This document shows positions 1 to 22,241 of a stretch of 64,000 nucleotides of DNA, piece after piece. How positions within the stretch are numbered: the first letter of the stretch is position 1; the number at the start of each line of letters is the position of its first letter. Under the pieces are notes generated by a model that was not told where the DNA came from, ran no database searches, and was given only the letters and a program-made list of their open reading frames with translations. Origin of the DNA: Actinomycetota bacterium (lineage in GTDB: Bacteria > Actinomycetota > UBA4738 > HRBIN12); contig VAXZ01000111.1 of assembly GCA_005885035.1 (NCBI GenBank), positions 1,603 through 65,602 of the forward strand, given 5' to 3'. The position numbers and the translations under genes are program-made.

Positions 1-1028
1 TCGCGGGAGGGATCGCCGGTCACGGATATGACGTCGATCTGGTCCTCAGCCGCGCTGAGGGCCATTACCTCCAGGAGGTACCCGACTCGGTTCGGATCGT
101 GGACCTTCATGCGCGACGCCTCCTCTCGAGCATCCCCGGCCTCGTGCGCTACCTCCGTCGCGACCGCCCGAACGCGATGCTCACGTCCATGAACTACGTG
201 AACATCGTCGGTATCTGGGCCAGGACGATCGCGCGGGTGGATACCAGGTTGATCGTGAACGAGCAGAACGCGCTTTCGCTCGAAGCCGCGCACTCGCCCC
301 GCCGGCGACACCGGCTCATGCCACGATTGATCAGGCACTTCTATCCATGGGCCGACGGCGTGACGTCCGTCGCGCGGGGAACGGCGGACGATCTCGAAAG
401 CACGGCGGGTGTGTCCCCGAGCCTGATCGAGGTCGTGCACAACCCGATCGTGACCACGGAACTGCGAGAGCTGGTGGCGGAGCCGCTGGGCCATCCTTGG
501 TTCGGCCGCGGACAGGTCCCCGTGGTGCTCGGGGTAGGACGTCTCGCACCCCAGAAGGACTTCGGGACGCTGATCCGCGCCTTCGCTCGGGTGATCGCGC
601 GACGTCCATGTCGCCTCATGATCCTCGGGGACGGGCCCGAGCGGGCGTCCCTCGAGATGCTCGTCGCCGAACGAGGGTTGACGGGATCGGTCGATCTTCC
701 TGGTTGGATCTCCAACCCATACCCGTATATGGCGCATGCGGGCGTCTTCGTGCTTTCCTCTCGATGGGAAGGGCTTCCTTCGGTGCTGATCGAGGCGCTC
801 TTCTGCGGGGTTCCGGTCGTCGCCACGGACTGCCTCAGCGGTCCCCGGGAGATCCTCGAGGGCGGCAGGTACGGCGCGCTCGTCCCGGTCGGGAACGAGG
901 ACGCGCTCGCCGCGGCTATCGAGAGAGCGTTGACGGGCGAGTTGGAGCTACCGCCGGCGGAGAGCTGGGAACCGTACGAACAGGAGACCGTCGTGAGGCG
1001 CTACCTGGAAGTCCTGGTGGGAGGGTAG
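1..1028 (+). CDS. Glycosyltransferase family 4 (GT4), 5'-truncated by the window edge
   Basis: Reading frame is open from nt 3. ORF track gives 99..1028, but the upstream translation (AGGIAGHGYDVDLV...) still looks like a GT-B N-domain. C-terminal GT4 motifs GVGRLAPQKDF and SRWEGLPSVLIEALFCGVPVVATD. Stop lies 2 nt before the next start. Confidence 0.8.
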   Translation, partial: AGGIAGHGYDVDLVLSRAEGHYLQEVPDSVRIVDLHARRLLSSIPGLVRYLRRDRPNAMLTSMNYVNIVGIWARTIARVDTRLIVNEQNALSLEAAHSPRRRHRLMPRLIRHFYPWADGVTSVARGTADDLESTAGVSPSLIEVVHNPIVTTELRELVAEPLGHPWFGRGQVPVVLGVGRLAPQKDFGTLIRAFARVIARRPCRLMILGDGPERASLEMLVAERGLTGSVDLPGWISNPYPYMAHAGVFVLSSRWEGLPSVLIEALFCGVPVVATDCLSGPREILEGGRYGALVPVGNEDALAAAIERALTGELELPPAESWEPYEQETVVRRYLEVLVGG

Positions 1029-1030
1029 CG

Positions 1031-2239
1031 ATGCGGAGGGTCGTCTACGCGCTGTCGCTGGTCCTGATCTTCACGATCCCCTGGGAAGGAGCGCTGCAAT
1101 CGGGGCTGGGAACCATCGCGACGGTCATGGGGATCGTGGTGACGGTGCTCTGGGTCGCGCTGATCGCGATGACCGGGCAGATGCGCCGGCCGATCACTTT
1201 CCTCTACGTGACCTGCATCTTCGTGTTCTGGATCGGGCTCACGGCCTTCTGGAGCGCCGATCCCGTCAACAGCATGAGTGCCGTCCTTCGATGGATCGAG
1301 TCCCTCGTTTTCACCTTCACGCTGTGGGACCTCTACCGGACCCGAACGGAAGTCCTGATGGGCCTCCAGGCATACGTGCTCGGCTCCTACGTGGCCATCG
1401 CGGGAGCGTTCGCGAACTACCTCGGTTCGCACGCCTTCTACACCCACTACGAGCGCTTCAGTCCCGGCAACACCAATCCGGACGGGTACGGTTTCACGGT
1501 CGCCCTTGGTGTCCCGATCGCCTGCTACCTCGCTGCGGCTCCCGAGACCTCGAGACGAGCCCGGGCGATCAACCTTGCGTACCTCCCGGTGGGCTTCGTT
1601 GGCATCGCGCTGTCGGGGACCCGGACCGCGTCGGTGGCGGCAGCGGTCGGTCTGCTGTTCGGCCTCGCCCTGCTCACCCGACTGAAACTATCCACGCGGG
1701 TCGCGGTCGTGGCGCTCCTGGCGTCGACGATGCTCGTGGTGTTGCCGATCGTTCAACCGTTGAAGTCGTTCCAGCGGCTCGGGACGACCGGAACCGACCT
1801 CAGCCAAGGCAACCTGAACGGCAGGACCGCGCAATGGGCTCAAGGCTTCGTCGCCCTCTCCGATCATCCGTTCTTCGGCGTGGGCACCGACCAATACCGT
1901 TCCGTGAACACCCTCGACAAGGTGGCCCACAACTCCTACCTGTCGGTCATGGTCGAGCTCGGTTTGGTTGGCTTCGCGATGTTCGCCTCGATCCTGTGGA
2001 TCGCTTTCCGATACGCCTTGATCCAGCCGAAGTGGGACAGGAGGTTCTGGGTCACCCTCCTCACGGTTTGGGCGATCGGCGCTTCCACGCTGTCCTATGA
2101 ACATCGGAAGACGACATGGCTCGTCCTGACGCTGTGCGTGGCAGCCGGGTCGATCGTCCGTGAACCCGCACCGCCGGCACGTGAGGAACCCGACACGGTC
2201 GCGTCGGTCCCGGTTGGCGTCCTGGGCCGGTCCGGATGA
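1031..2239 (+). CDS. O-antigen ligase / Wzy-like polymerase family membrane protein
   Basis: ATG at 1031 (aa 229 of ORF 347..2239; upstream part is out-of-frame read-through over the GT). Multi-TM protein with FFGVGTDQYRSVNTLDKVAHNSYLSVMVELGLVGF (Wzy_C/O-antigen ligase signature). ATGA overlap with the next gene. Confidence 0.7.
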   Translation: MRRVVYALSLVLIFTIPWEGALQSGLGTIATVMGIVVTVLWVALIAMTGQMRRPITFLYVTCIFVFWIGLTAFWSADPVNSMSAVLRWIESLVFTFTLWDLYRTRTEVLMGLQAYVLGSYVAIAGAFANYLGSHAFYTHYERFSPGNTNPDGYGFTVALGVPIACYLAAAPETSRRARAINLAYLPVGFVGIALSGTRTASVAAAVGLLFGLALLTRLKLSTRVAVVALLASTMLVVLPIVQPLKSFQRLGTTGTDLSQGNLNGRTAQWAQGFVALSDHPFFGVGTDQYRSVNTLDKVAHNSYLSVMVELGLVGFAMFASILWIAFRYALIQPKWDRRFWVTLLTVWAIGASTLSYEHRKTTWLVLTLCVAAGSIVREPAPPAREEPDTVASVPVGVLGRSG

Positions 2240-3102
2240 CCCTTCCGACGTTCGTTGGGATCGGGGTTCCGCGCGCCGGGACGACCTGGCTGCACACGCT
2301 GCTATCCGGGCATCCGGACGCGTACCTCCCCACACGGCGGAAAGAAGTGCGGTTCTTCGACCGCCACTTCGACCGAGGGGTCGAATGGTACGAGGGGTTC
2401 TTCTCTCCTCCGGAGGGAGCTGGCGGATACCGAGCGATCGGCGAGATCTCTCCTCAGTACCTCTACGGCCAAGAGTGCCCGACGAGGATCGCGACGGTGC
2501 TGCCGTCCGCGAAGCTCCTCGTGATGCTGCGGCATCCGGTCGACCGGGCGTACTCCCAGTACGGGTTCCTCTTGCAACGGCGCAACTACCGGGGGTCGTT
2601 CGAAGAGTTCCTGAGGGCCAGACCGCGAGCCCTCGAGATGGGCTATTACAGCCGCCATCTGCGGAGGTACCTCGATCGCTTCGATCGGGGACAGATCCTG
2701 CCCATCGTCTTCGAGGAAGCCGTCCGCGGCGGCGAGACGGTCCGTCGCGATCTGGCCGGCTTCCTCGGCATCTCCGAAGGTGCGTTCCCGGCGGCGATCG
2801 ACCGCGTGAACGCGAGCTCCATGCCCAAGTACCCACGGATCGCGAACCTCGCCGTCAGGACCGGCCGACGCCTCAGGAGGCGGCACCTGGAATCGATCGT
2901 CGATCTGGGAGGTCGATTGGGTGTTCGCCGGTTCATGACGAGCGGCACGCAGGTTCCGAGATTGGATACTGACCTCAGGAGCGAGCTCGGCCGGCGGTAC
3001 GTGGATGAGTTCGATGCGCTGGAAGGGATGCTGGGCATCGATCTGAGCTGTTGGAAGGATCGGCCGGCGAAACGGAGGACGGGCGATGCCGCGCCGGTCT
3101 AG
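2236..3102 (+). CDS. PAPS-dependent sulfotransferase (P-loop sulfotransferase fold)
   Basis: 5'-PSB motif VPRAGTTWLH and 3'-PB motif RHPVDRAYSQY. 288 aa. Confidence 0.8.
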   Translation: MTLPTFVGIGVPRAGTTWLHTLLSGHPDAYLPTRRKEVRFFDRHFDRGVEWYEGFFSPPEGAGGYRAIGEISPQYLYGQECPTRIATVLPSAKLLVMLRHPVDRAYSQYGFLLQRRNYRGSFEEFLRARPRALEMGYYSRHLRRYLDRFDRGQILPIVFEEAVRGGETVRRDLAGFLGISEGAFPAAIDRVNASSMPKYPRIANLAVRTGRRLRRRHLESIVDLGGRLGVRRFMTSGTQVPRLDTDLRSELGRRYVDEFDALEGMLGIDLSCWKDRPAKRRTGDAAPV

Positions 3103-4324
3103 GACACGACCGAACGGGGATCGGTCGCTCGACGTGTTGATCGTGTCCCAGCCCGCCGACTACGGTGTCGCGATCTACGTCCGGGAGCTGGCCCGATCGG
3201 CCGTGGAGGCCGGGCACGATGTGACCGTGATCAGCCCCCCGGAGTCGCGAGGGCCCTTGGCCAGCTGGGTCACGAGCGTCGGAGCCCGGCATCACACACT
3301 CGACATGGCCCGCAGGCCCGCCCTCCGTGATCCCTTCGACGTCTTGACCCTCCGCCGTCTCGCGCGAGGGCGCGACGTCCTGCACGTGCATTCGTCCAAG
3401 GCGGCCGCGCTCGGGCGCGTCGCGGCAGCGACCCTGCCGCGACGAGCCCGACCCGCGGTCGTGATGACTCCCCACTACTGGTCGTGGCTCGTCGGCGGGC
3501 GGCTTGAGGCCCTCTACCGGTGGATCGAGCGGCTGCTTGCTCGCCGCTGCGACGTGATCGTCGCCGTCTCCGAACGGGAAGAGGTGGAAGGTCGCTCGGT
3601 GCTGGGCGCGGACGCCCGACTGCTGTTGATACCGAACGGCGTCGATCGAGCACACTTCTCCCCTGAGGGACCGTCTGCGGAACGAGACGTCGGCCATCCC
3701 CTGATCGCCTGCGTGGGAAGGCTGAGCGAGCAGAAGGGTCAGGACGTCGCGATCCGCGCGCTCGCGCTGCTGAGCGATCGCACGTCGAGGCTCCGCCTCG
3801 TCGGGGGGGAGAGCACCCCGGGGCACCGCAGGCAGTTGGAGGAGCTCGCCAACTCGCTCGGCGTCGCGGAGCGGATCGAGTGGCGCGGTCCCGTGGACGA
3901 CACCGCCCCCGAGTACCGCGCCGCCGACGTGGTCATCGCGCCGTCCCGGTGGGAAGGCATGTCGCTCGCGTCGCTGGAGGCATTGTCGTGCGGTTCGGCG
4001 ATGGTCGCCACCGATGTGTCCGGGAGCGAAGCCCTCGGGTCCGCAGCCGTGATCGTGCCTCGAGACGATCCCGATGGGCTGGCCGGAGCCATCGACAGGC
4101 TCCTTCGCGATCCGGAGAAGCGGCGAGCGCTCGGGCTTGCGGCGAGAGCCCAGAGCCGGCCGTTCGACGTGTCCGCGACGATGCGTCGGAACCTCGATCT
4201 GTGGACCGAGCTCGTGCATGGAGGAGCCTGGCAAAGGAGTCAGGAGGACGGCTCGGGAGCGGTCGGGTCGGCCGTGCCCGGGACGCCTTCCGCTGCAACA
4301 GGGACGTGGACGACGGATGCGTGA
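3086..4324 (+). CDS. Glycosyltransferase family 4
   Basis: SRWEGMSLASLEALSCGSAMVATDVSGS and GRLSEQKG motifs. 412 aa. Overlaps the flanking genes. Confidence 0.85.
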   Translation: MPRRSRTRPNGDRSLDVLIVSQPADYGVAIYVRELARSAVEAGHDVTVISPPESRGPLASWVTSVGARHHTLDMARRPALRDPFDVLTLRRLARGRDVLHVHSSKAAALGRVAAATLPRRARPAVVMTPHYWSWLVGGRLEALYRWIERLLARRCDVIVAVSEREEVEGRSVLGADARLLLIPNGVDRAHFSPEGPSAERDVGHPLIACVGRLSEQKGQDVAIRALALLSDRTSRLRLVGGESTPGHRRQLEELANSLGVAERIEWRGPVDDTAPEYRAADVVIAPSRWEGMSLASLEALSCGSAMVATDVSGSEALGSAAVIVPRDDPDGLAGAIDRLLRDPEKRRALGLAARAQSRPFDVSATMRRNLDLWTELVHGGAWQRSQEDGSGAVGSAVPGTPSAATGTWTTDA

Positions 4325-5138
4325 CGCCTCCGACGACACGCTCCCGCCCGTCCGGTACGTGAGCATGCCCGGGAGCCCCTACACGGGTTCCACACTCTTG
4401 GGGATGCTGATGGCCAATCACCCTGCTTGTACCTCGATCGGCGCGGCGACGGGTCTCACGGCCAAGGTGGATCTGGACACCTACCTGTGCTCGTGCGGCC
4501 TGCTGTTCACCGAGTGCTGCTTCTGGCATCGCATCGCCCGACGGACGGAGGAGCTCGGGTATCCGGTGACCGTGTTCAAGACGAACTTCTGGAACACACA
4601 TGTCCGGGTCTCGGGACGCCGATGGCTCAACGGGGTCGTCGTGAGCTCGCTCGGGAACCCCTCGTTGACGGCCATCCGCGACGCGACGGTCGGCAGGACC
4701 CCTCCGGTTCGCCGGCGCGTCTCGGAGGCGAGGGCAACCACGTGGAGCCTGGCTCGGTCGATCCTGGAGGAGACGGGCAGGAGCGTGTTCGTGGACACGG
4801 CGCGTGATCATCAACGTCCGCGCTACCTCGCAGGTGCACCTGGCCTGCGGCTCAAGGTCATCCATCTGGTCCGCGATCCGCGCGGCAACGTCGCCAGCAT
4901 CATGAAGCACACCGGCGTCGACGTCGGGCACGCGGCTCGCCAGTGGCGCCACTACAACGTGGAGGCCGATCGCGTCGGTCGCTCGTTCCCACGCGGAGCG
5001 TGGATGCGGCTGCATTACGAGGAGCTGTGCTCGCAACCGCAAGAGACACTGGAGCGCGTCGCGATGTTCATCGGGGTGGAGCCCATCCCGGTGTCCGATC
5101 ACCTGCAGCCATCCGAGCATCATGTGATCGGCAACTGA
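4317..5138 (+). CDS. Sulfotransferase (P-loop fold)
   Basis: ATG at 4317 (aa 82 of ORF 4074..5138), overlapping the GT stop by 8 nt. SMPGSPYTGSTLLG (PSB-like loop) and KVIHLVRDPRGNVAS (3'-PB-like RDPR). Confidence 0.7.
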   Translation: MRDASDDTLPPVRYVSMPGSPYTGSTLLGMLMANHPACTSIGAATGLTAKVDLDTYLCSCGLLFTECCFWHRIARRTEELGYPVTVFKTNFWNTHVRVSGRRWLNGVVVSSLGNPSLTAIRDATVGRTPPVRRRVSEARATTWSLARSILEETGRSVFVDTARDHQRPRYLAGAPGLRLKVIHLVRDPRGNVASIMKHTGVDVGHAARQWRHYNVEADRVGRSFPRGAWMRLHYEELCSQPQETLERVAMFIGVEPIPVSDHLQPSEHHVIGN

Positions 5139-5150
5139 CCTCGGGTACGA

Positions 5151-6008
5151 GTGGCCATGAGCGACTCTCGCCGGCTGCTCGTGTTCGTCCACATCAACAA
5201 GACGGCTGGAACGACCGTGCGATACATCCTGCGCAGCTCGTACGGGGCTCGGCATTGCGACGTGGAGCCGTGGCACGGCGCCTGGACTGACCCCCCGTTC
5301 TCGACCCCCGACCTGCAGCGCGTCCGTCGGCTCTACCCGAGGCTCACCAGCATCGCCGGCCACCGCGTGAGCGGATACATCGACCTGGAGGAGCCCGGGA
5401 CCGAGTTCAGGTACCTGACCTTCCTCCGCGAACCGATCGCCCTCTGTGCTTCTCGCTTCCAATATCGCCTCGACCACCGGAAGAGGACCGATCTTTCCTT
5501 CGAGGCATGGATCCAGAAGGACTGGGTTCGCAACGCCCAGACGCAGCGGATCGGCGGTACGGCGGATGCGAACGAGGCGATCTCGGTGATCTCCCGGAAA
5601 GAGATGTTCGTCGGCGTCACCGAGGCGTTCGACCGCTCCATCGTCTTGCTGCGCGCCCTCCGCGCACCTGACCTCGACATCCGCTACGCGCCGGTGAACG
5701 TCGCCAAGAGCTCGCGCATCGCGAAGGATCTTCTGGACGATCCTCGCACCCGGGCGATGATCGTGGAGGCGAACCAGGCCGATCTCGAGCTCTACCGGCA
5801 CGTGAAGGAGGAGCTCTTCCCGGCGATGGAGCGCGGATACGGTCCTTCGCTCGCCGATTCCGTCGCAGCGTTCCGTGACGGTCAGGCGAAGCGATTCAAC
5901 CGGCGGCATCTGGCCATGTACGGGCTCAAGCAGCGCTTGGTGCTCCAGCCGGCTATGAAGCTCTACCGACGGTCGAGCAGGCACGACGTCGTCGACGTGC
6001 CTCATTGA
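5151..6008 (+). CDS. Sulfotransferase, Sulfotransfer_2-like (HS2ST/Gal3ST-type)
   Basis: N-terminal FVHINKTAGTT resembles the FVHIPKTGGT 5'-PSB of Sulfotransfer_2 enzymes. 285 aa. Starts 13 nt after the previous gene. Confidence 0.6.
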   Translation: MAMSDSRRLLVFVHINKTAGTTVRYILRSSYGARHCDVEPWHGAWTDPPFSTPDLQRVRRLYPRLTSIAGHRVSGYIDLEEPGTEFRYLTFLREPIALCASRFQYRLDHRKRTDLSFEAWIQKDWVRNAQTQRIGGTADANEAISVISRKEMFVGVTEAFDRSIVLLRALRAPDLDIRYAPVNVAKSSRIAKDLLDDPRTRAMIVEANQADLELYRHVKEELFPAMERGYGPSLADSVAAFRDGQAKRFNRRHLAMYGLKQRLVLQPAMKLYRRSSRHDVVDVPH

Positions 6009-6308
6009 GCATCAGGGACCGGACCCTCAACGATCCAGCCGAAGGCTGAGGTCCCTGCCGATGAGCTCCGCGGTCTTGCCGATGCCGTCTCGGAAGCGCT
6101 CGCGCAACTCCGTCGCGAGCTTCCTCGGGCGATCGGGGCGCGCGACGCAGGTTCCCGCGTCCGTGTTCGTCGCGCCCAGTCCCCCGCTCGCTTCGGGATC
6201 CACGGATCGACCTCTCTCCCGAGCGAGTCGTTCGTGAAGACGCGCTCGAGCAGCATGGGGCCGTCGTCCCCGCCTTCGCCGCGCCGACGACGATGAGATC
6301 GGGAAGCG

Positions 6309-7769
6309 TCACGGTGCGCTCGGATCGGACCCGTCGATCGCTTCCCGGATCGCGTCCTTGATCTCGATCACGACGCTCTCGAACGCTCGGTCGGTATCGA
6401 TGCGATGGACCACCGAACCATCGAATCGGAGATCGGCGCTGATCGCATGCCGCAGCCGCACGTAGCCTTCGGGCTCCCGCTTCTGTCGGTGAGCGTTCCG
6501 AGCGAGCGTGACCTCGAGCGGGGCCGTGAGATGGAACACGATGTCGGGAGCGGGGATGTCCCGATACAGCCGACCTTCGAGCGCAGCCAAGACGCGGCGA
6601 GCCGACGGACGACCGGAGCGCAGGGGGAGATGCCCGAGCTGCGGCCCGTCCGGAGCACCCCCCGTTCCCGAGGGGTACCGATCACTCAGGACGATCGTTC
6701 CGCCAGGGGACCGCTCGAGGGCTCCGAGGATCAGCGCCCGTCGCTCGTACGCCAGCATGATGGAGCGGAACGCGAACAGGAGCGGGTAGCCCCCTCGCGT
6801 CGGAGGATCCTCCTCCATCTTGGCTTCGACCCGAAGAAGTCGCTGCTCGGGGAACAGGGTCCGGAACGCGGGCAGCAGGACATGGGGGAGGAAGGTGAGC
6901 CACGTGCTCGGCGGCTTCCCCGCGTGGATCCGCCGGACCTGATGGTCCCGACCGAGCCAAGCCTCGACCTCGTTCAGGATCGTGGACTTGCCACTCGCCT
7001 CGGACCCCACGAACGCGATCGATCGGACGGGGATCTGCGGCGTCTCGCCGCCGGCTCCGCCCAAGCCGACGAGGACCTGGTGCACCACATCCTCGAATCC
7101 CTCGCGGGAGTCGTCGGTGATCTCGGCGATCAGGAGTCGTTCGCGGATCGCTTCCCTCACCGCCAGGCGTTCGAAGAGCTCCACGGCACGCGCGAGCCTG
7201 CCCGCGACCTGGTTGCGGCTCCGTCCGGCCAGCTCACGGCGCGGATCTGGACGTCTCATCGCACGTTCCACCAGCAGATCGAGCGGAGCCCTCACGTAGA
7301 CGATGCGGTCGGGCATGGGAACCAGGCGAGCGAAGCGGTCCAGATCGACGTCCCCGTACGGAGCATCGCTGTACACGAATAGTTGGTACGCCGAGAGGAG
7401 GACCCCTTCGTCGACCAGAACCGTCCTCCGGTCGGACGCGCGGCGAGCCAACTCGTGCACGCCAACCTTCCGGACGATGTTCAGCCGGTAGTTGTACTTC
7501 GCGAACGTGGATGGCGCGTAGCGCCGGAGTCGGTCGAACGCGAAGCGGACGAACTCCCCATCCCGCCTATACGCTCGGACGAACGACGGGAACGAGATCA
7601 CGTCCGCCGCGAGATTGATCGTGCTGGGATCGGTTATCCACCGCAGGCCCGCACGGTCGCGCACCAGATCGACGGACAGGATCGCGCGAGAGCCGTTGCT
7701 CCGCCGACGAACCTCCTTCGCGAGGCTCGTCTTCCCCGCTCCGCTGCACCCGATGAACTCAACGATCAT
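6309..7769 (-). CDS. Tandem double P-loop NTPase/kinase-like protein, function unknown
   Basis: Two Walker A motifs (FIGCSGAGKTS and FVGSEASGKST), each followed by similar downstream blocks (DEGVLLSAYQLF). Likely start is M34 (MIVEF) at 7769, which forms an ATGA overlap with the stop of the upstream GT gene. ORF track start is 7868. Confidence 0.55.
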   Translation of the reverse strand: MIVEFIGCSGAGKTSLAKEVRRRSNGSRAILSVDLVRDRAGLRWITDPSTINLAADVISFPSFVRAYRRDGEFVRFAFDRLRRYAPSTFAKYNYRLNIVRKVGVHELARRASDRRTVLVDEGVLLSAYQLFVYSDAPYGDVDLDRFARLVPMPDRIVYVRAPLDLLVERAMRRPDPRRELAGRSRNQVAGRLARAVELFERLAVREAIRERLLIAEITDDSREGFEDVVHQVLVGLGGAGGETPQIPVRSIAFVGSEASGKSTILNEVEAWLGRDHQVRRIHAGKPPSTWLTFLPHVLLPAFRTLFPEQRLLRVEAKMEEDPPTRGGYPLLFAFRSIMLAYERRALILGALERSPGGTIVLSDRYPSGTGGAPDGPQLGHLPLRSGRPSARRVLAALEGRLYRDIPAPDIVFHLTAPLEVTLARNAHRQKREPEGYVRLRHAISADLRFDGSVVHRIDTDRAFESVVIEIKDAIREAIDGSDPSAP

Positions 7770-8929
7770 CGGTGGGGCACCGCCGGTCGTGCCGTCTCCA
7801 GATACACGGCATCGGTGGCCGTACGCATGACGGGCAACGTGAAACGCGCGCTCACGTGCGCTCGGCACAGGCGACCGATCTCGCGCCGCTCGTCGGACGA
7901 CATCGCTCGGTAACGCCTGATCTGCATCGCGAACCCTTCGACGTCACCCGGCCGGACGAACGGGATGAACCCGGCGTCTTCGGCGATCTCTCGGTGGGGC
8001 GGGATGTCGGACAGGATGACCGGGCATCCGGCAGCCATCGCCTCCAGGACGGCCACCGGCAGACCCTCGCCGTTCGAGGTGGAGACGAAGACGTCGGCTT
8101 CGGCGCACGCGACGAACACCTCTTCTCGGGGGATGAGGCCTCGCAACGTGACGCGGTCCCGAAGGCCCGCGCGGTCGATCCGGGCTTCCAGCTCCGTTCC
8201 GAGCCGTCCCCCACCGATGAAGACGAGTCGACCGCCGTCGTCGCGGTCCACGCTGCTTGCGAACGCGTCGAGCATGACGAACGGGTCCTTCACGACATCG
8301 AGACGACCTACGGACAGGACGGTGAAGCGCCCATCCTCCCTGCCGACCGGGGCGGCAGCGACGGCGCGGTCGACCCGGTCGATGTCAGCTCCGTTCTGGA
8401 CGACCCGCCAACGATCGCGTACGAGCCATTTCAGCGCCCGCGGCAGGCTCTCGTACGCCGACCGGCTGCAGAAGATCACGCGATGGAAGGTCGCGAGGGG
8501 GACGACCATCAACGCCTTGTCCCGAAGCCGGTAATCGTAGAACGAATCCTGGACGGTGTAGACCAGCGAACGCCGGAGCCGGCGCGATCGGCGCCGGGCG
8601 AGCACCGCGAGCAGCAACAGGACGCCCGACTGCGGGGCGTGAGCATGGATGACGTCGTAGTCATCGGCATCCAGCGCGCGCCCCAAACTTCGGAAGAACC
8701 CTCTCAGCGTTCCGTCACCAGCGAACATCGTGATCTCCGAAGGTGGGGTCAATCGCGGCACGAAGTAGGTGCTGATCGAGAGATCGCGCTCTCCGATCAA
8801 CGGGAGACAGTGCTCGTTGTACTGCCCGTTGGTCTCGCCGAGCATCAGGATCAGGTGCAAGACCTTGAGCCTTCGCACGGCGGCATCCTGCGTGCCGGTC
8901 GGGACGGGTCGGCCCTCGCTATCGAGCAT
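7766..8929 (-). CDS. Glycosyltransferase family 4
   Basis: GEGLPVAVLEAMAAGCPVILSDIPPHREI; GT-B fold. 387 aa. Confidence 0.85.
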   Translation of the reverse strand: MLDSEGRPVPTGTQDAAVRRLKVLHLILMLGETNGQYNEHCLPLIGERDLSISTYFVPRLTPPSEITMFAGDGTLRGFFRSLGRALDADDYDVIHAHAPQSGVLLLLAVLARRRSRRLRRSLVYTVQDSFYDYRLRDKALMVVPLATFHRVIFCSRSAYESLPRALKWLVRDRWRVVQNGADIDRVDRAVAAAPVGREDGRFTVLSVGRLDVVKDPFVMLDAFASSVDRDDGGRLVFIGGGRLGTELEARIDRAGLRDRVTLRGLIPREEVFVACAEADVFVSTSNGEGLPVAVLEAMAAGCPVILSDIPPHREIAEDAGFIPFVRPGDVEGFAMQIRRYRAMSSDERREIGRLCRAHVSARFTLPVMRTATDAVYLETARPAVPHR

Positions 8930-9716
8930 GTGTTGTCAAGCGGGGCCGGAGCTCCGTCGCGAGCAGGTCGGCCGTGGCTCCCTCGGTATCGAGGCGAAAT
9001 ACCTCCGGTGCCCCCCAGGCCTCGATGCGACGGAGCACCGCGTCGAACGATCGGCGGTACGTGTCGAGGAACCGGTAGCCCTCCTCGACCCCCTCGCCCT
9101 TCGTCCTGTGGAGCTGAGAACGCCCGTTGATCCTCCGCCACAGAACATCGTCGGGTGCATCCAGCCAGACGATCGCGCTGAGCTCTCGAACCCATAACCG
9201 AAGCATGTCCTCCCACCACGCATCGAAGGCGGGCGTGGCCGTGAACGGCTTCCCTTCAGCCTTCAGACGAACGAGGGCGTAGATCGGCCCCTGATCGAGC
9301 ACGGTGACGCCGCCGCGGCGGCGCATCTCACGTCGGAGGACGGTCCGCCACCGCGTCACGTACACCAAGAGCTTGAACTCCGGCCACGTCATCCGAGGCG
9401 GTCGGCGGTCGGTCGCGAGGATCGGCAGCAGGCGCGGGGTCGCCGTCGCGACCCGGAGGAGGTGGGATGGCAGCCGCGTGTGGATGAAACCGCCCACGGC
9501 GAACTCGGAGTCCTCGCACATTGACCGCGTGAGGGTGGACTTCCCGGAACCCGCCACGCCTGCGACTTCGACCAGGCGTGGCTTCGGCAGCGTCGGAAGG
9601 CGGGACCAGCGACGATGATCGATGGTGGTGCCCACGATGCCGTCGAAACCTCCCTTTCGGCCGAGATGCTCGTGCTTCGATGGGAAACGGTACGCGGGCA
9701 CCTCGCTTGCGGCCAT
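8919..9716 (-). CDS. P-loop NTPase/kinase-like protein, single-module paralogue of 6309..7769
   Basis: Walker A VAGVAGSGKSTL. LDQGPIYALVRL and WLDAPDDVLWRRI blocks resemble each half of the tandem protein. Confidence 0.5.
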   Translation of the reverse strand: MAASEVPAYRFPSKHEHLGRKGGFDGIVGTTIDHRRWSRLPTLPKPRLVEVAGVAGSGKSTLTRSMCEDSEFAVGGFIHTRLPSHLLRVATATPRLLPILATDRRPPRMTWPEFKLLVYVTRWRTVLRREMRRRGGVTVLDQGPIYALVRLKAEGKPFTATPAFDAWWEDMLRLWVRELSAIVWLDAPDDVLWRRINGRSQLHRTKGEGVEEGYRFLDTYRRSFDAVLRRIEAWGAPEVFRLDTEGATADLLATELRPRLTTHAR

Positions 9717-9821
9717 CTGATGAACGCCGTACCTGGGCTACGGTCCGCGGTGCAGGGCGGATCATGCCGCCCTCGTCGACGCGCAAGAAGCGGCCAGCCG
9801 AGGGCGCGAACGTAGCCTCGG

Positions 9822-9839
9822 TACATCGGTTGCGTGATG
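9822..9839 (+). promoter_or_regulatory. Shared 18-nt motif TACAYCGGTTGCGTGATG, copy 1, in a divergent intergenic region
   Basis: 17/18 identity with 12393..12410. Lies between the divergent genes 8919..9716(-) and 10060..11439(+). Confidence 0.4.
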
Positions 9840-10059
9840 GGAACGCCGCACGCACCAGCGTCGCTCGCGTCTTAGGCGCGTCCTGAAAGAAAGATGGTGG
9901 CCGACGGGTCGCATCGGCTCGGTACGTTTCTTACGGCGAAACGCGCATGCGCTGGAAGGGACCGGACCGCCACACTCGGTTCTCCAGACCGCGGAGGGGC
10001 GAATGGAGAGCGCGATCACCGGGACCGTGCTTCGTGCACCGTGCGGCGGAGCCTAGAGG

Positions 10060-11439
10060 ATGGCTGTTCGCGAACCCCTCGTGGTTCTCCCCACGCCTCG
10101 CGTGTTGCGGTTCCGCCCTCCTCTTTCGAGTCTCATCCCCGTCACGGACGCGCTTGCCCTCGGGATCGTGTACGTCCTCGTGGGGTTCCACCCCGTCGCG
10201 ATCGTGTTCGCCGTGCTCACGTTCCTGATCCTCAACAGCGACTCATCTCGGATCTTCCGGGTCAACCCCCGTCTCGGCGACGACGCAGCCTGGTTGCTGG
10301 GTCGCGTGGCCGTCTCCCTCCTGTTGCTGATGTCGGTGGTGGCGGTCGCCAAGCTCCCGCTCGACATCCGCGCGCACCTGAGCAACCTCACGGTGATCGC
10401 GCCACTCTCCGCGATCGCCGTGATCATCGGCCGGGCGGCCGCGTACGCGTTGGGTCGGGCGGCGAAAGGTCGAGGCGTCGCCTCCGAGCGAACCCTGATC
10501 GTCGGAGAAGGCGAACTGGCGATCGGGCTCGCGAAGACCCTGCTGGACCATCAGGAGTTCGGGTTGCGGCCCGTCGGGTTCCTGGGCCGATCGCAGGATG
10601 GGTCCGCGGTCCTCCCCTTCCTCGGTGAGTGCGCGGAACTCGATCACGTCGTTCACCAGCATTCGGTGAGTCGAGTGCTCATCGCATTCGGCGATACCGA
10701 CGACAAGGATCTCGCGACCGTCCTTCGCGCCAGCGAGCGGACGCCCGCGGAGATCCACGTCGTTCCGCGATTCTTCGAACTGAGCGGGATCCCCCAGGGG
10801 GCCGCCGTTGACGACGTCTGCGGCATCCCGCTGTTCCACCTCCGCCGGCCGGCGCTCCGTGCGGCGGCACGGGTGGAGAAGCGGGCCTTCGACCTCGTTG
10901 GATCCACGCTCCTGCTCCTGCTCACCGCGCCGCTCCTCGCGATCGCCGCCCTCGCCGTCCGCTTGTCGAGCCCGGGTCCGATCCTGTTCCGGCAGAAGCG
11001 GGTCGGCCTCAACGGTCAGGTCTTCGAGATCGTCAAGTTCCGGACGATGCGCGAGAATGACGACTCCGACACGGCATGGTTCTCGGGCGACGACGATCGG
11101 GTGACCAGAGCCGGGCGCATCCTCCGGATGACGAGCATCGATGAGCTGCCGCAGCTGTTGAACGTGCTTCGGGGAGAGATGTCACTCGTCGGTCCCCGAC
11201 CGGAGCGACCCCACTACACGGACCAGTTCGCGGCCACCGTGTCCCGCTACGACGACCGACACCGGGTGCTCGGTGGGATCACCGGGTGGGCACAGATCCA
11301 TGGTCGATCGCGTGGCTTGGACGCCGTGCCGGAACGCGCACGCCTGGACAACTACTACATCGAGAACTGGTCGGTCTGGCGGGACCTCGTGATCATCGTC
11401 CGGACGGTCGCCGTGCTGCTGCGCGGCGACGACGGCTAA
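10060..11439 (+). CDS. Polyprenyl-phosphate glycosyl-1-phosphate transferase (WbaP/exopolysaccharide 'sugar transferase' family)
   Basis: N-terminal TM region. C-terminal catalytic domain with KRAFDLVGS...[19 protein letters not shown]...[24 protein letters not shown]. Confidence 0.9.
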
Positions 11440-12095
11440 GCGGTCGGCGTTCCGTCCGAGGAGAGGTAGCCAAGGCCTCTCAACGCTTCATCGATCCGGC
11501 AGGACCCGAACTCCGTGACGAGGCGCCGGAGGTCGCGCCGCGTCCGACCTCGCCCCGTGTAGGCGCGGAACCGGAGGGTCCTCGGCATGCCCGCGGGGGG
11601 GATCTCGTCCGGGTCCAGCTCCCAGGGGTGGAAATAGAACGTGAACCATGGGTTGGAGCGCAGGTGCTTCGCTACGCCCCAACGGAACACCGGATAGGGG
11701 ATCAAGCGGAAGTACGCGCCGCCGGCCCACGGGACGTGGATCGTCGCGATCGGGACGCGGGTCATCTGGATCTCCAACAGGCCGGGCCGGATCTCCGTGA
11801 CGGTCGCCCCTGGTGGGACCGTTGCCGAGATCTGCCCGTACCGATCGTGTTGCGTGAATCCGAAGTAACTGGAGTCGTACCGGTATCCGGCCTCAGCGAC
11901 CAGATCAAGGACGAGATCGCTCACGGAGAAGTTGGGTGCACGGACACCGAGAACCTCGGAGCCCGCTACCTGTTCGAGGCGGTCCTTCGACCGGCCGAGC
12001 TCCTCCTTGATCTCATCGGGGGTCAGCTGGTTCAGGTTCCGGTGCAGATAGGTATGACTGGCGATCTCGTGTCCATCGTCCACGATCCGCTGCAC
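11436..12095 (-). CDS. Polysaccharide deacetylase (NodB, EPS/PEP-CTERM-locus subtype), N-terminally disrupted
   Basis: HEIASHTYLH (NodB motif 2). The frame stays open upstream to 12266 and encodes DWFHAENV..TFFVLGWVAERYP, but it is closed by an in-frame TAG at 12267..12269 with no start codon. First usable start is GTG at 12095. Confidence 0.6.
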   Translation of the reverse strand: MQRIVDDGHEIASHTYLHRNLNQLTPDEIKEELGRSKDRLEQVAGSEVLGVRAPNFSVSDLVLDLVAEAGYRYDSSYFGFTQHDRYGQISATVPPGATVTEIRPGLLEIQMTRVPIATIHVPWAGGAYFRLIPYPVFRWGVAKHLRSNPWFTFYFHPWELDPDEIPPAGMPRTLRFRAYTGRGRTRRDLRRLVTEFGSCRIDEALRGLGYLSSDGTPTA

Positions 12096-12392
12096 GACCG
12101 CGGGGTAGCGTTCCGCGACCCACCCGAGGACGAAGAACGTCGATCGGACCCGGGCGGCTGCAAGGATATCCAGGAGCTCGTGAACGTTCGGTTCGAGCCT
12201 CGACTCCAGCCGGTCCCAATCATGCGTTGGCAGGCTCGCCCGGACGTTCTCGGCGTGGAACCAGTCCTAGCCTAGGGGACCCCTGGTTCGATGCCACCCG
12301 CGTCCACCATGCTCGAGTTCAAGCCGATGGACGGGGGGTTCAAGGGCGAAACGTGGCCTGCTGACCTGCCCCGCGAGATCGCGTACGTCGTC

Positions 12393-12410
12393 TACACCGG
12401 TTGCGTGATG
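12393..12410 (+). promoter_or_regulatory. Shared 18-nt motif TACAYCGGTTGCGTGATG, copy 2
   Basis: Lies between the divergent deacetylase gene (-) and the metallophosphoesterase gene (+). Confidence 0.4.
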
Positions 12411-12568
12411 TCGCACCTACGGTCTCGGACCTAGGGTGCAGTGAACGATCGCGCGCCGCCGCGCGAGCTTCCCTTGCGTCTGCACCCTTGAGTGGCGGCG
12501 AGACATGGGGGAGTCGTCGTGGAGCAGCCATCAGGAGCCAAGTGGGTCTCAACCTGTTGGGACGCATC

Positions 12569-13868
12569 ATGATCGTGTCACCGCGGAAGCCGCTCGAATG
12601 GGTGGTTGTCTTCTCATTGCTCGTGGCCGCAACCGTCCTGGTTCCCGTCACCGCCGAGGCCTCCAGCAACTGCGGCACCTCGAGCGGCCACAACCTTTGC
12701 CTCTCGGCTGCTGACACCCTGACCGGTGAACAGACCGTCACCGTCACGAACTCGCCCAACAACGGCGTCGTGTTCGCGACGTGGGTCCCGTCGGGCGGGA
12801 AAGCCCTGCAACTCATAGAGATCGATGCGCCCTCCCCGGCCACGACCGACTATTCCTTCGTGTGGCCGACCCAGAAATACCTGGACGGCTCGGGCACCCT
12901 GTCCCTACAGGCAGGTTCGATCGGCTCGGCGGCCGTCATGATCGCCGTCACCCTGAGCAATGGCAACACAACGGACTTCCAACACAGCCCGAAGGACTGG
13001 ATGAACTCCCTACCCGGATCGTGGACGGGGCCGGAGGATCCGACGATCCTCGCGGTCGGGGACGGCCCGTCGAACGAGGTGACGTCCAACGCCGTCGCCA
13101 GCCGGATCGCCGCACTCGATCCACCGTTGTTCCTGTTCCTCGGCGATGTCTATGAGACGGGCACGTTTACAGAGTTCCGGAACCATTACGGGGCTTCTGA
13201 GCTCGACACGCCTGGGGCGGGGACGCTCTGGGGAGAGACCGCCGACATCACGCAGCCCACCCTCGGGAATCACGAGAAGCCCAACTCAGCGGCCTTCATC
13301 GACTACTGGCACGGGAGGCCGCTCTTCACGAGCTTCACGTTCGGCGGGACCCTGTTCCTTGACATGAACTCAAGCGCGTCGATGAGCGCGACCAGCGCGC
13401 AGTACCAGTTCGTCAAGAGCGCGGTCACCAACCCTTCAGCCCCGAACTGCATCGTCGCCTTCTGGCATATCCCCGCCGTTGTAACGAACACGTCGGTGAC
13501 GGCCGGTCAGACAGCCATGTGGGCGCTGCTCGCGAACAACGGCGTCGATCTACTGGTGACCGGGCACCAGCACAAGATGGTGGAGTTCAACCCGCTCGAC
13601 GCCGATCTCAACCCCACGCCGCAGGCCCACCTGGTGCAGCTGGTCTCCGGAGCGGGGGGGCACAAGCTCGCCGGGCCGACCTCCGTCGGAGCACGCGTCG
13701 CGTGGTCGAAGGGGGGCACGGCGGGATTGCTCTCGCTGTCGCTCGCCGGAGCAGCCGGGGGGAACGCTGCAACGAGTATCGGCTGGCAGTTCCAGACCGT
13801 AAGCGGGAGCGATCTCCATGATGGATCGGTCGACTGTGGCTCCGTCGCGAACCACGCCCCGGTCGTGA
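12569..13868 (+). CDS. Secreted calcineurin-like metallophosphoesterase (3' end frameshifted)
   Basis: ATG at 12569 (aa 57 of ORF 12401..14590) followed by a signal peptide MIVSPRKPLEWVVVFSLLVAATVLVPVTAEA. Phosphoesterase motifs LFLGDVYETG, TLGNHE and VTGHQHK. The rest of the ORF track's 729-aa read-through is low-complexity Arg/Gly out-of-frame sequence. Confidence 0.7.
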
Positions 13869-13892
13869 ACTCCGAGCTCCCCCACGACGTCC

Positions 13893-14525
13893 GTGTCCTT
13901 CGACACCGCCGGGACGTACGTCCTGCGGCTCACCGGAGACGACAGCGCGCTCCAGTCCTCGGACGACGTCACGGTGACGGTGTTACCGGAAGGGGTGGCC
14001 ACGCTCACGGTGCCCATCGGCGCGAGTTCGGACGACGCCGAAGAGTCATCCGTCGACGGATCGGTCGCGCTGGGGAACCCAGCCCTCAAGATCGTGAACC
14101 GCGCCGGTGTGAACCAGACCGTGGGGCTACGGTTCGCCGGATTGTCGATCCCGCAGGGCGCGACCATCCAGAATGCCTACATCCAGTTCCAGTGCAGGGT
14201 GCAGACCACCGCGGCTGCGTCGCTCTTGATCGAGGGGCAGGCAGCGGACAACCCAAGTACGTTCGCGAGGATCACGAACAACATCTCCTCCCGTGCTCGA
14301 ACGTCGGCCGACGTCGGGTGGGTCCCGGCGCCGTGGGGAACGGTCGGAGCACAGGGTCCCGATCAACAGACGCCGGATCTCACCAGCGTCATGCAAGAGA
14401 TCGTCAACCGCGGAGGATGGGGCCCCGGCGATCCCATGGTCTTCATCATCACCGGCACGGGAGTCCGCACGGCGGAAGCCTTCGACGGCCTGTTCGCGCC
14501 CGTCCTTCACGTGACGTACGCGTAG
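13893..14525 (+). CDS. C-terminal beta-rich domains of the metallophosphoesterase, encoded in the +1 frame
   Basis: Frame opens right after TGA at 13866..13868. SFDTAGTYVLRLTGDDSALQSSDDVTVTV is Ig/PKD-like, followed by a domain with IPQGATIQNAYIQFQ. Confidence 0.5.
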   Translation: MSFDTAGTYVLRLTGDDSALQSSDDVTVTVLPEGVATLTVPIGASSDDAEESSVDGSVALGNPALKIVNRAGVNQTVGLRFAGLSIPQGATIQNAYIQFQCRVQTTAAASLLIEGQAADNPSTFARITNNISSRARTSADVGWVPAPWGTVGAQGPDQQTPDLTSVMQEIVNRGGWGPGDPMVFIITGTGVRTAEAFDGLFAPVLHVTYA

Positions 14526-14586
14526 GTCCGCGGACGGGCATCGCCTCGTTCCGGCGTTGCCGGTTGGCACTCGCCTGGCTATCCTG

Positions 14587-14613
14587 TTAGCACTCAAGGC
14601 CTAGGAGTGCTAA
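14587..14613 (+). promoter_or_regulatory. CIRCE operator (HrcA-binding inverted repeat) upstream of groES
   Basis: TTAGCACTC-AAGGCCTAG-GAGTGCTAA is a perfect 9-N9-9 match to the CIRCE consensus, 53 nt upstream of groES. Confidence 0.9.
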
Positions 14614-19614: not shown

Positions 19615-19662
19615 GGGTACCCACGATACGGCGGGTCCGGGGTTCGGACACTCCGGCGCGGA

Positions 19663-20061
19663 TCAGACGATCGGTTTCTCGACGCCGGCTCGAGCGATCC
19701 CGGACACGAGCCCCGCGACGAGCACGATGTTGGTGACGGCGAAGATCCACCAGAACCACGCTGCCGACCCAGCCGGCACCGAGACCATCGCGTGCAGCGT
19801 GGTCACGAGCGCCGTCAGGCCCGACTCGAGGACGAACGCCCACGACCACCACCACGCGTCGTCCAGCCGGCGCGAGATCATCAGCGCCAGCGCCGCCGAG
19901 GACAGGCCGGCGATGCCGCAGACCCGAACGTACGTGTAGTCGGGGTAGGGCACCTGATCGAACCAGGTGACCAGGATCCATCGCGGGCTAACCGCGATCG
20001 CGGTTCCGCACACTCCCCAGACGGCAGCGAACAGCAGAAGCGCGCGTCGCAGGAACGCCAT
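19663..20061 (-). CDS. Small integral membrane protein (132 aa), first gene of the ABC-2 exporter operon
   Basis: MAFLRRALLLFAAVWG...; 4 predicted TM segments. The ORF track's 595-aa extension is antisense to the AlkP gene. Confidence 0.5.
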   Translation of the reverse strand: MAFLRRALLLFAAVWGVCGTAIAVSPRWILVTWFDQVPYPDYTYVRVCGIAGLSSAALALMISRRLDDAWWWSWAFVLESGLTALVTTLHAMVSVPAGSAAWFWWIFAVTNIVLVAGLVSGIARAGVEKPIV

Positions 20062-20199
20062 CCCGGGCCCTTCCTCCTTGCTCGGGCCCGAAGCGGCCCA
20101 AAGTCGCTGGTAGGATACGCGAACCGCGGATGGCTCCTGTCGCACGAGCGCGCCCGCCGTCCGCTCATCGGACCGCGGACCGGAGGGGATACGAGCAAC

Positions 20200-21612
20200 A
20201 TGCAGGACGGCCCCAGGGTCGCAGTGATCGGACTCGACTGCGTAACCCCCACGCTCCTGTTCGACGATCTTCGTTCCGAGGTCCCCACCATCGCGAAGCT
20301 GATGGACAACGGCATGTACGGCGACCTCGCCAGCATCACCCCTCCGATCACCGTGCCCGCCTGGGCGTGCGGGCTGACGGGTCAGACCCCTGGGCAGCTC
20401 GGCATCTACGGGTTCCGCAATCGCAAGGACGTCACCTACGACGGACTCTCGATCGTCCATTCCGGCTCCGTGAAGGAGCCCGCCGTCTGGGACGCGTTGG
20501 GTGCGAGCGGCATGCGTTCGCTCCTGATCGGGGTGCCGCCCTCGTATCCACCGCCCGCCGACTTCCCCGGTTGGCGCGTCGGGTGCTTCCTCACGCCTCC
20601 CTCGGCGGACCGCTACGCCTATCCGCAGGATCTCCAGGCCGAGATCGAAGAGGAGCTCGGGGGGAAGGGCCAGTACATCTTCGACATCCCGAACTTCCGG
20701 GAGGCCGGCTTCGACGTCACGTTGGATCAGGTGTTCAAGATGACCGAGCGGCGATTCCGGGTGGGTCGACGGCTGATCCAGAACAAGCCTTGGGACTTCT
20801 TCATGCTCTGCGACATCGCGCCGGACCGCCTGCATCACGTCTTCTGGCAGTACGTGGATCCGGCGCACCCGCGACACGAACCCGGCAACCGGTACGAGGG
20901 AGTGTTCCACGACTACTACCGCTTCTTGGATCGCGAGCTGGCATCGCTCGTCGAGCTGATCCCCGAGGACGCGGTGACGATCGTGATGTCCGATCACGGC
21001 GCCCGCCCCATGATGGGCGGTCTGTGCTTCAACGACTGGTTGATCCAAGAGGGATACCTCGTGCTCGACGAGCCCGTCGACGGAGGCCCGGTTCCCTTCA
21101 AGGATGTCTCGGTCGATTGGTCCCGGACCGCGGCGTGGGGCGACGGCGGCTATTACGGGCGGTTGTTCCTCAACGTCAAGGGGCGCGAGACGCAGGGTGT
21201 CGTCGACCCCTCGCGCTACGAAGCGACTCGAGACGAGCTGATCCAGAAGCTCGAAGCTGCTCCCGGACCGGACGGCACGCCGCTCGGGACGAGGGTCCTC
21301 AAGCCGCAGGACGTCTATCCCGAGGTTCGGGGTGTCGCCCCCGACCTCCTCGTCTATTTCGGCGACCTGTCGTGGCGCTCCGTGGGCTCGATCGGCAACC
21401 CGAGCATGTTCACGTACGAGAACGACACCGGCCCCGACGGGGCCAACCATGACCGGGACGGCGTCTTCATCATGAACGGTGCTCCCCGCCAGCCCACCGG
21501 CAAGATCGAGGGACTCCGCCTCGTCGACGTGGGTCCGACCATCCTCTCCCTCTACGACATCGACGCGTCCCGGGCGCTGCCCGCGGCTGTCGGAAGGAGC
21601 TTCCTCGCATGA
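20200..21612 (+). CDS. Alkaline-phosphatase superfamily: type I phosphodiesterase/nucleotide pyrophosphatase family protein
   Basis: ATG at 20200 (aa 137 of the ORF). PAWACGLTG block resembles the NPP catalytic Thr loop. 470 aa. Stop overlaps the cysC start. Confidence 0.75.
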   Translation: MQDGPRVAVIGLDCVTPTLLFDDLRSEVPTIAKLMDNGMYGDLASITPPITVPAWACGLTGQTPGQLGIYGFRNRKDVTYDGLSIVHSGSVKEPAVWDALGASGMRSLLIGVPPSYPPPADFPGWRVGCFLTPPSADRYAYPQDLQAEIEEELGGKGQYIFDIPNFREAGFDVTLDQVFKMTERRFRVGRRLIQNKPWDFFMLCDIAPDRLHHVFWQYVDPAHPRHEPGNRYEGVFHDYYRFLDRELASLVELIPEDAVTIVMSDHGARPMMGGLCFNDWLIQEGYLVLDEPVDGGPVPFKDVSVDWSRTAAWGDGGYYGRLFLNVKGRETQGVVDPSRYEATRDELIQKLEAAPGPDGTPLGTRVLKPQDVYPEVRGVAPDLLVYFGDLSWRSVGSIGNPSMFTYENDTGPDGANHDRDGVFIMNGAPRQPTGKIEGLRLVDVGPTILSLYDIDASRALPAAVGRSFLA

Positions 21613-22241
21613 CCGAGCGGCGCGGTTTCACCGTCTGGTTCACCGGCCTTTCGGGCGCCGGCAAATCGACGATCGCCGAGATGCTGTACCACGAGTTCCA
21701 GGCCCGCGGGATGAAGACCGAGATCCTCGATGGTGATGTCGTGCGGCAGAACCTGTCCAAGGGTCTCGGCTTCTCCAAGGAGGACCGCGATCTCAACATC
21801 ATGCGGATCGGGTTCGTGGCGAACCTCCTCACGCGCAACGGCGTCGCTACGATCTGTTGCCCTATCAGCCCGTACCGAGAGACCCGGGACGCTGTTCGCG
21901 CAGAGGTCGGGGACTTCGTCGAGGTGTACGTCCACGCGACCGTCGCAGAGATCGCGGCGCACCGGGACCCGAAAGGCCTTTACAAGAAGGCGCTGGCGGG
22001 AGAGTTGACCGGCTTCACGGGCGTCGATCCAGACGCGCCGTACGAGGCGCCGGAGCACCCTGAGCTCGTCGTCGACACGATGGTGGAGACGCCCGAAGAG
22101 TCCCTGCAGCGCGTGCTCACGACGCTGACCGCGCTCGGGTACCTCGAGAGCGACGAGCCGATGGTCGAGGGCGACCGCGTGCACTCCGGCATGACCGATC
22201 TGCGCGTGCACGAGACGGGGCACGTCGTCAAGGAACACTGA
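21609..22241 (+). CDS. cysC: Adenylyl-sulfate (APS) kinase
   Basis: WFTGLSGAGKSTIA P-loop, DGDVVRQNL.GLGFSKEDRDLNIMRIGFVA. 210 aa. Confidence 0.9.
   Translation: MTERRGFTVWFTGLSGAGKSTIAEMLYHEFQARGMKTEILDGDVVRQNLSKGLGFSKEDRDLNIMRIGFVANLLTRNGVATICCPISPYRETRDAVRAEVGDFVEVYVHATVAEIAAHRDPKGLYKKALAGELTGFTGVDPDAPYEAPEHPELVVDTMVETPEESLQRVLTTLTALGYLESDEPMVEGDRVHSGMTDLRVHETGHVVKEH

Follow-up and report, generated by a model that had tools for sequence, protein, structure and literature searches.

The 64,000-nt stretch of an Actinomycetota bacterium genome analysed here (assembly GCA_005885035.1, contig VAXZ01000111.1; hereafter the window) carries, in two divergent intergenic regions of a glycan locus, the near-identical 18-nt sequences TACATCGGTTGCGTGATG (9822-9839, plus strand; site A) and TACACCGGTTGCGTGATG (12393-12410, plus strand; site B). 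From our point of view, it is rather probable that each of these 18-mers forms the upstream half of a promoter-operator module, bound by a dimeric regulator that co-regulates the glycan and phosphoesterase genes. In such a module, a linker of 12 nt would connect the palindrome GTA-N7-TAC to a weak -35 element (ATGnCn; in its consensus-like form TTGnCn), followed by a spacer of 17-18 nt and a -10 element of the form TAnnnT. A dimeric helix-turn-helix transcription factor would sit on GTA-N7-TAC just upstream of the RNA polymerase, with the palindrome centred at about -55, and would jointly control housekeeping-sigma promoters with poor -35 boxes, activation being the simplest mode. Regulation of this kind would tie the P-loop/GT4 operon and the WbaP-like gene of the locus to secreted phosphoesterases, namely the Metallophos-PKD protein and, in relatives, a Metallophos paralogue, a PLC-type and a PHP enzyme. 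The sequences, the degree to which they are conserved and their constant spacing are direct observations, and both the existence of the factor and the direction in which it would regulate are proposed on that basis; the genes bearing the module probably share one regulator.

Both 18-mers occur exactly where the sequence-only reading, an earlier inspection of the letters of the window, had placed them, and no further match with up to three mismatches is present in the window. The same reading had argued that a 17/18 match within 64 kb is very unlikely to arise by chance, which turned out to be wrong. The window (68% G+C) contains 55 pairs of 18-mers identical at 17 or more of 18 positions (26 direct, 29 inverted), and five dinucleotide shuffles of it gave 13-18 direct and 15-19 inverted pairs (about 30 in total). 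Since shuffled sequence yields dozens of such pairs, a bare 17/18 pair has to be expected by chance; taken alone, the A-B pair is only weakly significant, and the lesson is that a repeat of this kind in high-GC DNA carries no meaning before comparative data are at hand. The case against chance is instead based on orthologous conservation, on the enrichment of an extended pattern, and on the fact that A and B form the sole non-coding pair. As to the last point, about 6% of the window is non-coding, and three pair events had both copies outside genes according to an approximate gene map; the other two turned out to be coding on checking, which leaves A-B as the only truly non-coding 17/18 pair. 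A weight-matrix scan of the window returned these two copies only; a third candidate, at 61333, was discarded, as it falls within a Peptidase_M23 gene and its score equals the highest obtained from shuffles. At position 12406, site B of the window reads GCGTG like site A, and the closest strains (L066:3380 and L057; L numbers denote the loci used for comparison) read GCGCG at site B. This difference lifted the A-B match to 17/18 and could reflect either a point change or an A-to-B conversion.

The 18-mer itself, which had been taken as the motif unit, is not the functional unit. Among aligned copies, the similarity reaches 11 nt further to the left, to CGTA, and this extension together with the first TAC of the 18-mer makes up the palindrome GTA-N7-TAC. 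The TAC is the right half-site, followed by the 12-nt linker and by an ATG with which a -35-like hexamer opens, so that the 18-mer spans half a palindrome, a linker and half a -35 element. GTA-N7-TAC was observed ten times in the window (1.23 expected), and four of the ten matches fall into the two intergenic regions, namely at sites A and B and at two putative promoters designated P1 and P3 (Table 1); copies of the two sites, including those in relatives, are referred to as class A and class B. All four carry the ATG, with GTA-N7-TAC-N12-ATG occurring four times in the window versus 0.00 times in 100 shuffles. All four are, moreover, kept at orthologous positions, with GTA and TAC constant and the N7 spacer variable. 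In class B and P1, the two-fold symmetric half-sites stay constant around a variable spacer across relatives, as is expected of a dimeric operator. Five of the other matches appear to be coding, as judged from flanking sequence and from lists of open reading frames (ORFs), and the one at 19617, upstream of the phosphodiesterase/APS kinase genes and near an ABC transporter, is not conserved in L089 and was rejected. A different palindrome in site B, TGCG-N6-CGCA, is not enriched. A literature search on GTA-N7-TAC returned no papers.

In three of the four copies (P1, P3 and class B, with their orthologues), the palindrome is followed by ATGnCn and, after 17-18 nt, by a -10-like hexamer, and the spacing from palindrome to -10 is 36 nt (35-37 nt) throughout. 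The TAnnnT form of a housekeeping -10 is present in every orthologue of class B and P1; P3 has only nAnnnT and class A has neither. With regard to a TTGnnn-type -35, expected 16-19 nt before the -10, the three promoter classes offer ATGnCn at 17-18 nt, and a true TTGGCT appears only in the P1 copy of L171. In this relative (64% WbaP identity), P1 reads TTGGCT-N18-TAGGTT, a textbook -35/-10 pair, and the ATG position therefore corresponds to the first half of a -35 hexamer. Housekeeping promoters in Actinobacteria are known to pair TAnnnT with a TTG-type -35 at a distance of 17-18 nt, and it is from this form that a housekeeping sigma factor is taken to act here. Between the 18-mer and the class B -10, the sequence varies among copies. 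Judged from these elements, we infer that transcription starts near 12443-12445 (class B), 9983 (P3) and 9680 (P1).

The sequence-only reading had proposed a transcription-factor or sigma-factor site that coordinates the locus, and of this proposal a conserved, non-coding and promoter-linked element has held up, whereas a dedicated sigma factor fits poorly with the housekeeping-like hexamers. One could imagine that the whole upstream block is read by an alternative sigma factor of its own, or by a factor associated with the polymerase, instead of a separate transcription factor, given the fixed geometry to the -10 at no fewer than three promoters and the lack of a transcription factor gene nearby. 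We regard this as quite improbable, however, as a TAnnnT -10 and a TTG/ATG -35 with a 17-18 nt spacer are of the housekeeping type, as the palindrome lies 36 nt from the -10 and hence too far away for a -35, and as its two-fold symmetry suggests a dimeric binder. The GGAAC that follows site A might be suggestive of a promoter for an extracytoplasmic function (ECF) sigma factor (GGAAC-N16-17-CGT), but it is confined to the lineage of the window, with TGAGAT in L036 and TGAAGG in L038. The sequences do not fit a sigma-54 promoter either.

To assess conservation independently of the motif, loci of relatives were fetched via WbaP homologues with 94, 91, 89, 70, 68, 67, 64 and 59% protein identity. 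The 18-mers are found at orthologous positions in these loci (L036, L038, L041, L042 and L043; site A not in L042 and L043). In the 94-89% relatives, site A stands between the P-loop gene and the WbaP-like gene, for example as TACATCGGATGCGTGGCG, as a version ending in GACG, or as TACATCGCATGCGTGACG. Wherever a relative has the Metallophos-PKD gene, L042 and L043 included, site B stands before it, and a second class B copy precedes a 418-amino-acid Metallophos paralogue in L041 and L065. The P1 palindrome was seen in each relative with a WbaP identity of 64% or more; L170 (59%) has no module. An exact-motif scan of 185,579 GTDB representative genomes gave 27 single matches in unrelated phyla, a number at chance level. 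With a degenerate motif, a metagenome scan gave at least 120 stretches, most of them coding-sequence coincidences in unrelated organisms; at least 25 are contigs of the same clade, and all of those listed carry the motif in the P-loop/WbaP gap or upstream of a Metallophos gene, and at no other place. The two outcomes that the sequence-only reading had named as speaking against its proposal, a dispersed repeat or a lack of conservation in orthologous intergenic regions, were thus not what we found.

As the two sites are direct repeats 2571 bp apart that flank the WbaP-like and deacetylase genes, and as 17/18 pairs are common by chance, a mere coincidence or the ends of a mobile or recombining segment have to be considered as well. 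Such an explanation is hardly credible: it is already contradicted by both copies keeping their orthologous positions throughout the clade, L042 carries site B but lacks site A, the similarity stops at the module edges, no transposase or integrase was found, and the motif is not a dispersed repeat.

Additional copies occur next to phosphoesterase genes of other families. In L042, a further module copy of the same geometry at 9767-9793(+), GTACACCTGGTACCCACGTGCGCGATG, has a linker shorter by 1 nt and a TAGGGT after 21 nt; the distance from it to the downstream PLC-type Phosphoesterase gene (PF04185), which is absent from the window, is 134 nt. In L074 (355-383, minus strand) and L166-L168, CGTA-N7-TACACCGGTTGCGCGATGTCGCA with 34 matching bases stands upstream of a gene for a PHP-domain phosphoesterase. 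The L074 site, flanked by a radical-SAM gene and the phosphoesterase gene, was seen in three assemblies, the organism having 58-60% GC; at a distance of 16 nt, TTGCGC within its linker would provide the -35. Tracing it via the radical-SAM neighbour led to the locus of a 58%-identical homologue with another context and no motif.

Site B can be assigned to a gene. As it is kept in L042 and L043, where no deacetylase stands, it belongs to the plus-strand Metallophos-PKD gene, and we infer that it is the upstream half of a complete promoter of the module type for that gene. Its earlier assignment to the deacetylase was not borne out; the deacetylase has a -10-like TAGGCT of its own, which is kept in the window (minus strand, 12274 to 12269).

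It could also be asked whether the motif acts in RNA, as a leader, a small RNA or a short leader ORF. The 18-mer ends in ATG and is followed by short ORFs of 8 and 12 codons, and in L028 the gene caller placed a 47-amino-acid ORF over site B. These ORFs, however, differ in length and frame among relatives, with indels that are not multiples of three, and there was no relevant Rfam match at either gathering or permissive thresholds. RNAalifold on 13 class B sequences gave -4.8 kcal/mol and no compensatory pair, and the motif would lie upstream of the transcript if the -10 is right. Taken together, we consider an RNA function very unlikely. A candidate hairpin GCACC...GGTGC around the class B -10 was dismissed, as it is found only in some copies and shows no covariation.

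Site A is more difficult to interpret. It is not a plain promoter, as there is no -10 at the module spacing on either strand. Its palindrome resembles that of P1 (GTAGCC..GGTAC), its linker is almost identical to that of class B, and it is located between the divergent promoters P1 and P3, 83 bp from the P1 and 110 bp from the P3 palindrome centre. As such, it is best read as an operator-only copy, possibly derived from a duplicated promoter, and would act as an auxiliary or extra operator between P1 and P3. As the main alternative, site A could be a non-functional relic, that is, a duplicated promoter fragment or a leftover of gene loss, in which case its likeness to site B would reflect ancestry and not shared regulation. 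The missing -10 and the chimera-like combination of a P1-type palindrome with a class B-type linker would agree with this, as would the ATG that relatives have not kept (GACG or GGCG) and the absence of the site from L042, L043, L045 and L171, the latter two of which have a PKD/CBM gene there instead. We nevertheless regard a relic as unlikely, since the motif blocks are invariant while the DNA between them has diverged: in the 11 distinct orthologous sequences of the footprint, some of them from lineages with a P-loop protein identity of only 57-60%, ACGTAG, TACA.C, TGCGTG and CGCA.CAGCG do not vary and the flanks do.

Several observations weigh against a promoter-operator module under a dimeric regulator. 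No nAnnnT hexamer follows the TAC of site A at 34-38 nt on either strand, which makes the function of this site the weakest link. No gene for a transcription factor or DNA-binding domain was found among the about 45 window ORFs scanned, and that of the regulator may lie elsewhere. Classical activator sites are not centred near -55. Consensus and conservation are the only basis for assigning the -10 and -35, and a generic scan of the region for sigma-70 promoters and terminators found nothing. For P3 in particular, the -10 conforms only to nAnnnT (CACACT), and a rival TACGTT lies inside the P3 palindrome. Furthermore, the distance from the palindrome to TAGCAT in L074 is 27 nt and not 36 nt. 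Lastly, module sites in the source genome were surveyed within the 64 kb only.

Table 1. Module elements and genes of the glycan locus and its surroundings (window positions). Promoter elements are putative.
Feature	Position	Strand	Remarks
P1 -10-like TACCGT	9687-9692	-	TAGCCT, TATCCT, TAGCGT, TAGGTT in relatives; 35-36 nt from palindrome
P1 -35-like ATGGCC	9711-9716	-	N18 to -10; TTGGCT in L171, AGGGCG in L042
P1 palindrome GTACCTGGGCTAC	9729-9741	.	minus-strand promoter of P-loop/GT4/P-loop operon; reads GTAGCCCAGGTAC on minus strand
Class A palindrome GTAGCCTCGGTAC (GTA-N7-TAC)	9812-9824	.
Site A: right half-site TAC, linker ATCGGTTGCGTG, ATG	9822-9839	+
P3 palindrome GTACGTTTCTTAC	9922-9934	.	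WbaP promoter, plus strand
P3 -35-like ATGCGC	9947-9952	+	N18 to -10
P3 -10-like CACACT (nAnnnT only)	9971-9976	+	CAGACT, GAGACT, GACACT in relatives; 35-36 nt after palindrome
17-codon upstream ORF, MESAITGTVLRAPCGGA then stop	10003-10056	+	GGAGG Shine-Dalgarno 5 nt before; ends 3 nt before WbaP ATG
Class B palindrome GTACGTCGTCTAC	12383-12395	.
Class B -35-like ATGTCG	12408-12413	+	first 3 nt are last 3 nt of 18-mer; N18
Class B -10-like TAGGGT	12432-12437	+	TAnnnT in every class B copy, 20-22 nt after 18-mer
Glycosyltransferases, Wzy-like polymerase, sulfotransferases	about 100-6000	+
P-loop (265 amino acids as longest ORF)/GT4/P-loop (519 amino acids) operon	6309-9716	-	transcribed from inferred P1
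WbaP-like polyprenyl glycosylphosphotransferase (Bac_transf)	10060-11439	+
XrtA-type polysaccharide deacetylase	11436-about 12268	-
Secreted Metallophos/K319L-like PKD protein	12542-14590	+	Pfam matches; gene downstream of site B
groES-groEL	14666 onwards	+
Type I phosphodiesterase and APS kinase	19792-22241	+

Two gene starts or models in the locus are corrected by the present analysis, and the distances from the 18-mers to the genes given by the sequence-only reading, which are arithmetically correct with respect to the longest ORFs, have to be read with two corresponding caveats. The first concerns the P-loop gene, for which the distance of about 106 nt holds relative to the longest ORF, but whose true start is probably GTG 9635 and not ATG 9716. 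The latter falls within the P1 -35-like hexamer, the inferred P1 start at about 9680 lies downstream of it, and the first 27 codons of the 265-amino-acid ORF (9635-9716, minus strand) overlap the inferred promoter. In L042, these codons are not kept as coding sequence: the equivalent of ATG 9716 is missing and a 1-nt indel breaks the frame. GTG 9635 is preceded by a GGGAGG Shine-Dalgarno sequence, in agreement with gene calls of 231-232 amino acids in L042 and L043. The second caveat concerns the deacetylase, whose apparent 5' end (near 12266) results from a 99-bp deletion, specific to this assembly, whose edge falls there. Compared with the near-identical contig L028 (L028:12210-12308), the gene is cut at 12268/12269, and the deletion takes the 5' untranslated region, the start codon and the first 14 codons; in L028, the gene is intact with 292 amino acids. 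The deletion stems from either strain variation or faulty assembly.

With transcription from P3, the 17-codon upstream ORF that precedes the WbaP-like gene would have a short leader. This ORF has the same length in L036, L038, L041, L042 and L043 and its peptide diverges according to the alignment; it may be translationally coupled to WbaP. A 35-nt block at 9916-9952(+), CTCGGTACGTTTCTTACGGCGAAACGCGCATGCGC, is nearly invariant in all aligned relatives and more conserved than the neighbouring coding sequence. It holds the P3 palindrome, a second palindrome CGTTTC-N7-GAAACG, and GCGCATGCGC. For the Metallophos-PKD gene, ATG 12569 is an alternative start, and the N-terminus of the protein is signal-peptide-like.

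The gene identities were obtained by Pfam and NCBIfam scans of the window ORFs. The WbaP-like enzyme, the GT4 enzymes, several sulfotransferases and the nearby APS kinase suggest a sulfated-glycan pathway. The APS kinase gene comes directly after that of a type I phosphodiesterase/NPP; the two lie 5 kb beyond the glycan locus on its downstream side, and this proximity fits a supply of 3'-phosphoadenosine-5'-phosphosulfate to the sulfotransferases of the locus. At 6009-6308, the window and L028 have only a call of 58 amino acids, and L036, L038 and L042 have there a sulfotransferase gene of 294 amino acids, which stands between a Gal-3-O-sulfotransferase-like gene and the gene for the 519-amino-acid P-loop protein; the remnant suggests a lineage-specific gene loss. 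Away from the locus, a repeat finder revealed a 131-nt direct repeat (38138-38268 and 38399-38529; 77% identity, spaced 261 nt) in a region of ORFs without Pfam match.

The recurrence of the module before phosphoesterase families, taken together with the sulfation genes, suggests, as a speculation, a phosphate-limitation regulon. In that case, the module would mark such a regulon in an uncultured soil lineage of Actinomycetota, in which a regulator that does not use a PHO box would switch on phosphoesterases and also govern how a sulfated, phosphate-free anionic surface glycan is made. We would give this idea little credence at present. If it were true, as many as four unrelated families of secreted phosphoesterase (Metallophos, PLC-type, PHP, possibly others) would be switched on together, in a counterpart of the teichuronic-acid switch of Bacillus. 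Irrespective of this, the value of the element lies in the regulon link, by which sulfated-glycan assembly and secreted phosphoesterases are likely co-expressed, and in the handle it offers for finding the regulator. For an uncultured group of soil actinobacteria, it also provides a defined regulatory motif that can be tested.

Overall, the type of element, an operator combined with a promoter, is ordinary, and the present module is a new instance of a familiar kind. Class I activator-dependent promoters of the housekeeping sigma factor have an upstream site for a dimer, such as that of CRP at -61.5. Like these, the module has a symmetric site that precedes a weak -35 and a recognisable -10 by a constant distance, and several promoters of a single functional gene set share this layout. 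Unlike them, it has half-sites of only 3 bp (GTA/TAC), and its centre, deduced from the promoter elements, would lie near -55. In Bacillus subtilis, PhoP controls the tua and tag operons, and the module resembles a PHO box in that it is located upstream of or next to the -35 of secreted phosphoesterase genes and is also found at envelope polymer genes. The actinobacterial PHO box of PhoP, however, consists of 11-nt direct repeat units with the core GTTCACC (PMC2691820), and the module is an inverted repeat without such units; the best 7-mers found by eye in the class B consensus are CTACACC and TCGCACC (5/7 and 4/7), 19 nt apart, and a PHO box was therefore rejected. GntR operators are GT-Nx-AC palindromes, with GT and AC far from the centre in the YtrA subfamily (PMC4494728). 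The conserved GT...AC, the long variable spacer and the extra, weaker boxes nearby are all reminiscent of this type. The regulon type differs, as YtrA regulons usually comprise a single ABC-transporter operon with a single site that is almost never located between divergent operons (PMC4494728), and no GntR gene was found in the window. As a lead only, we therefore regard the GntR type as the nearest known operator type.

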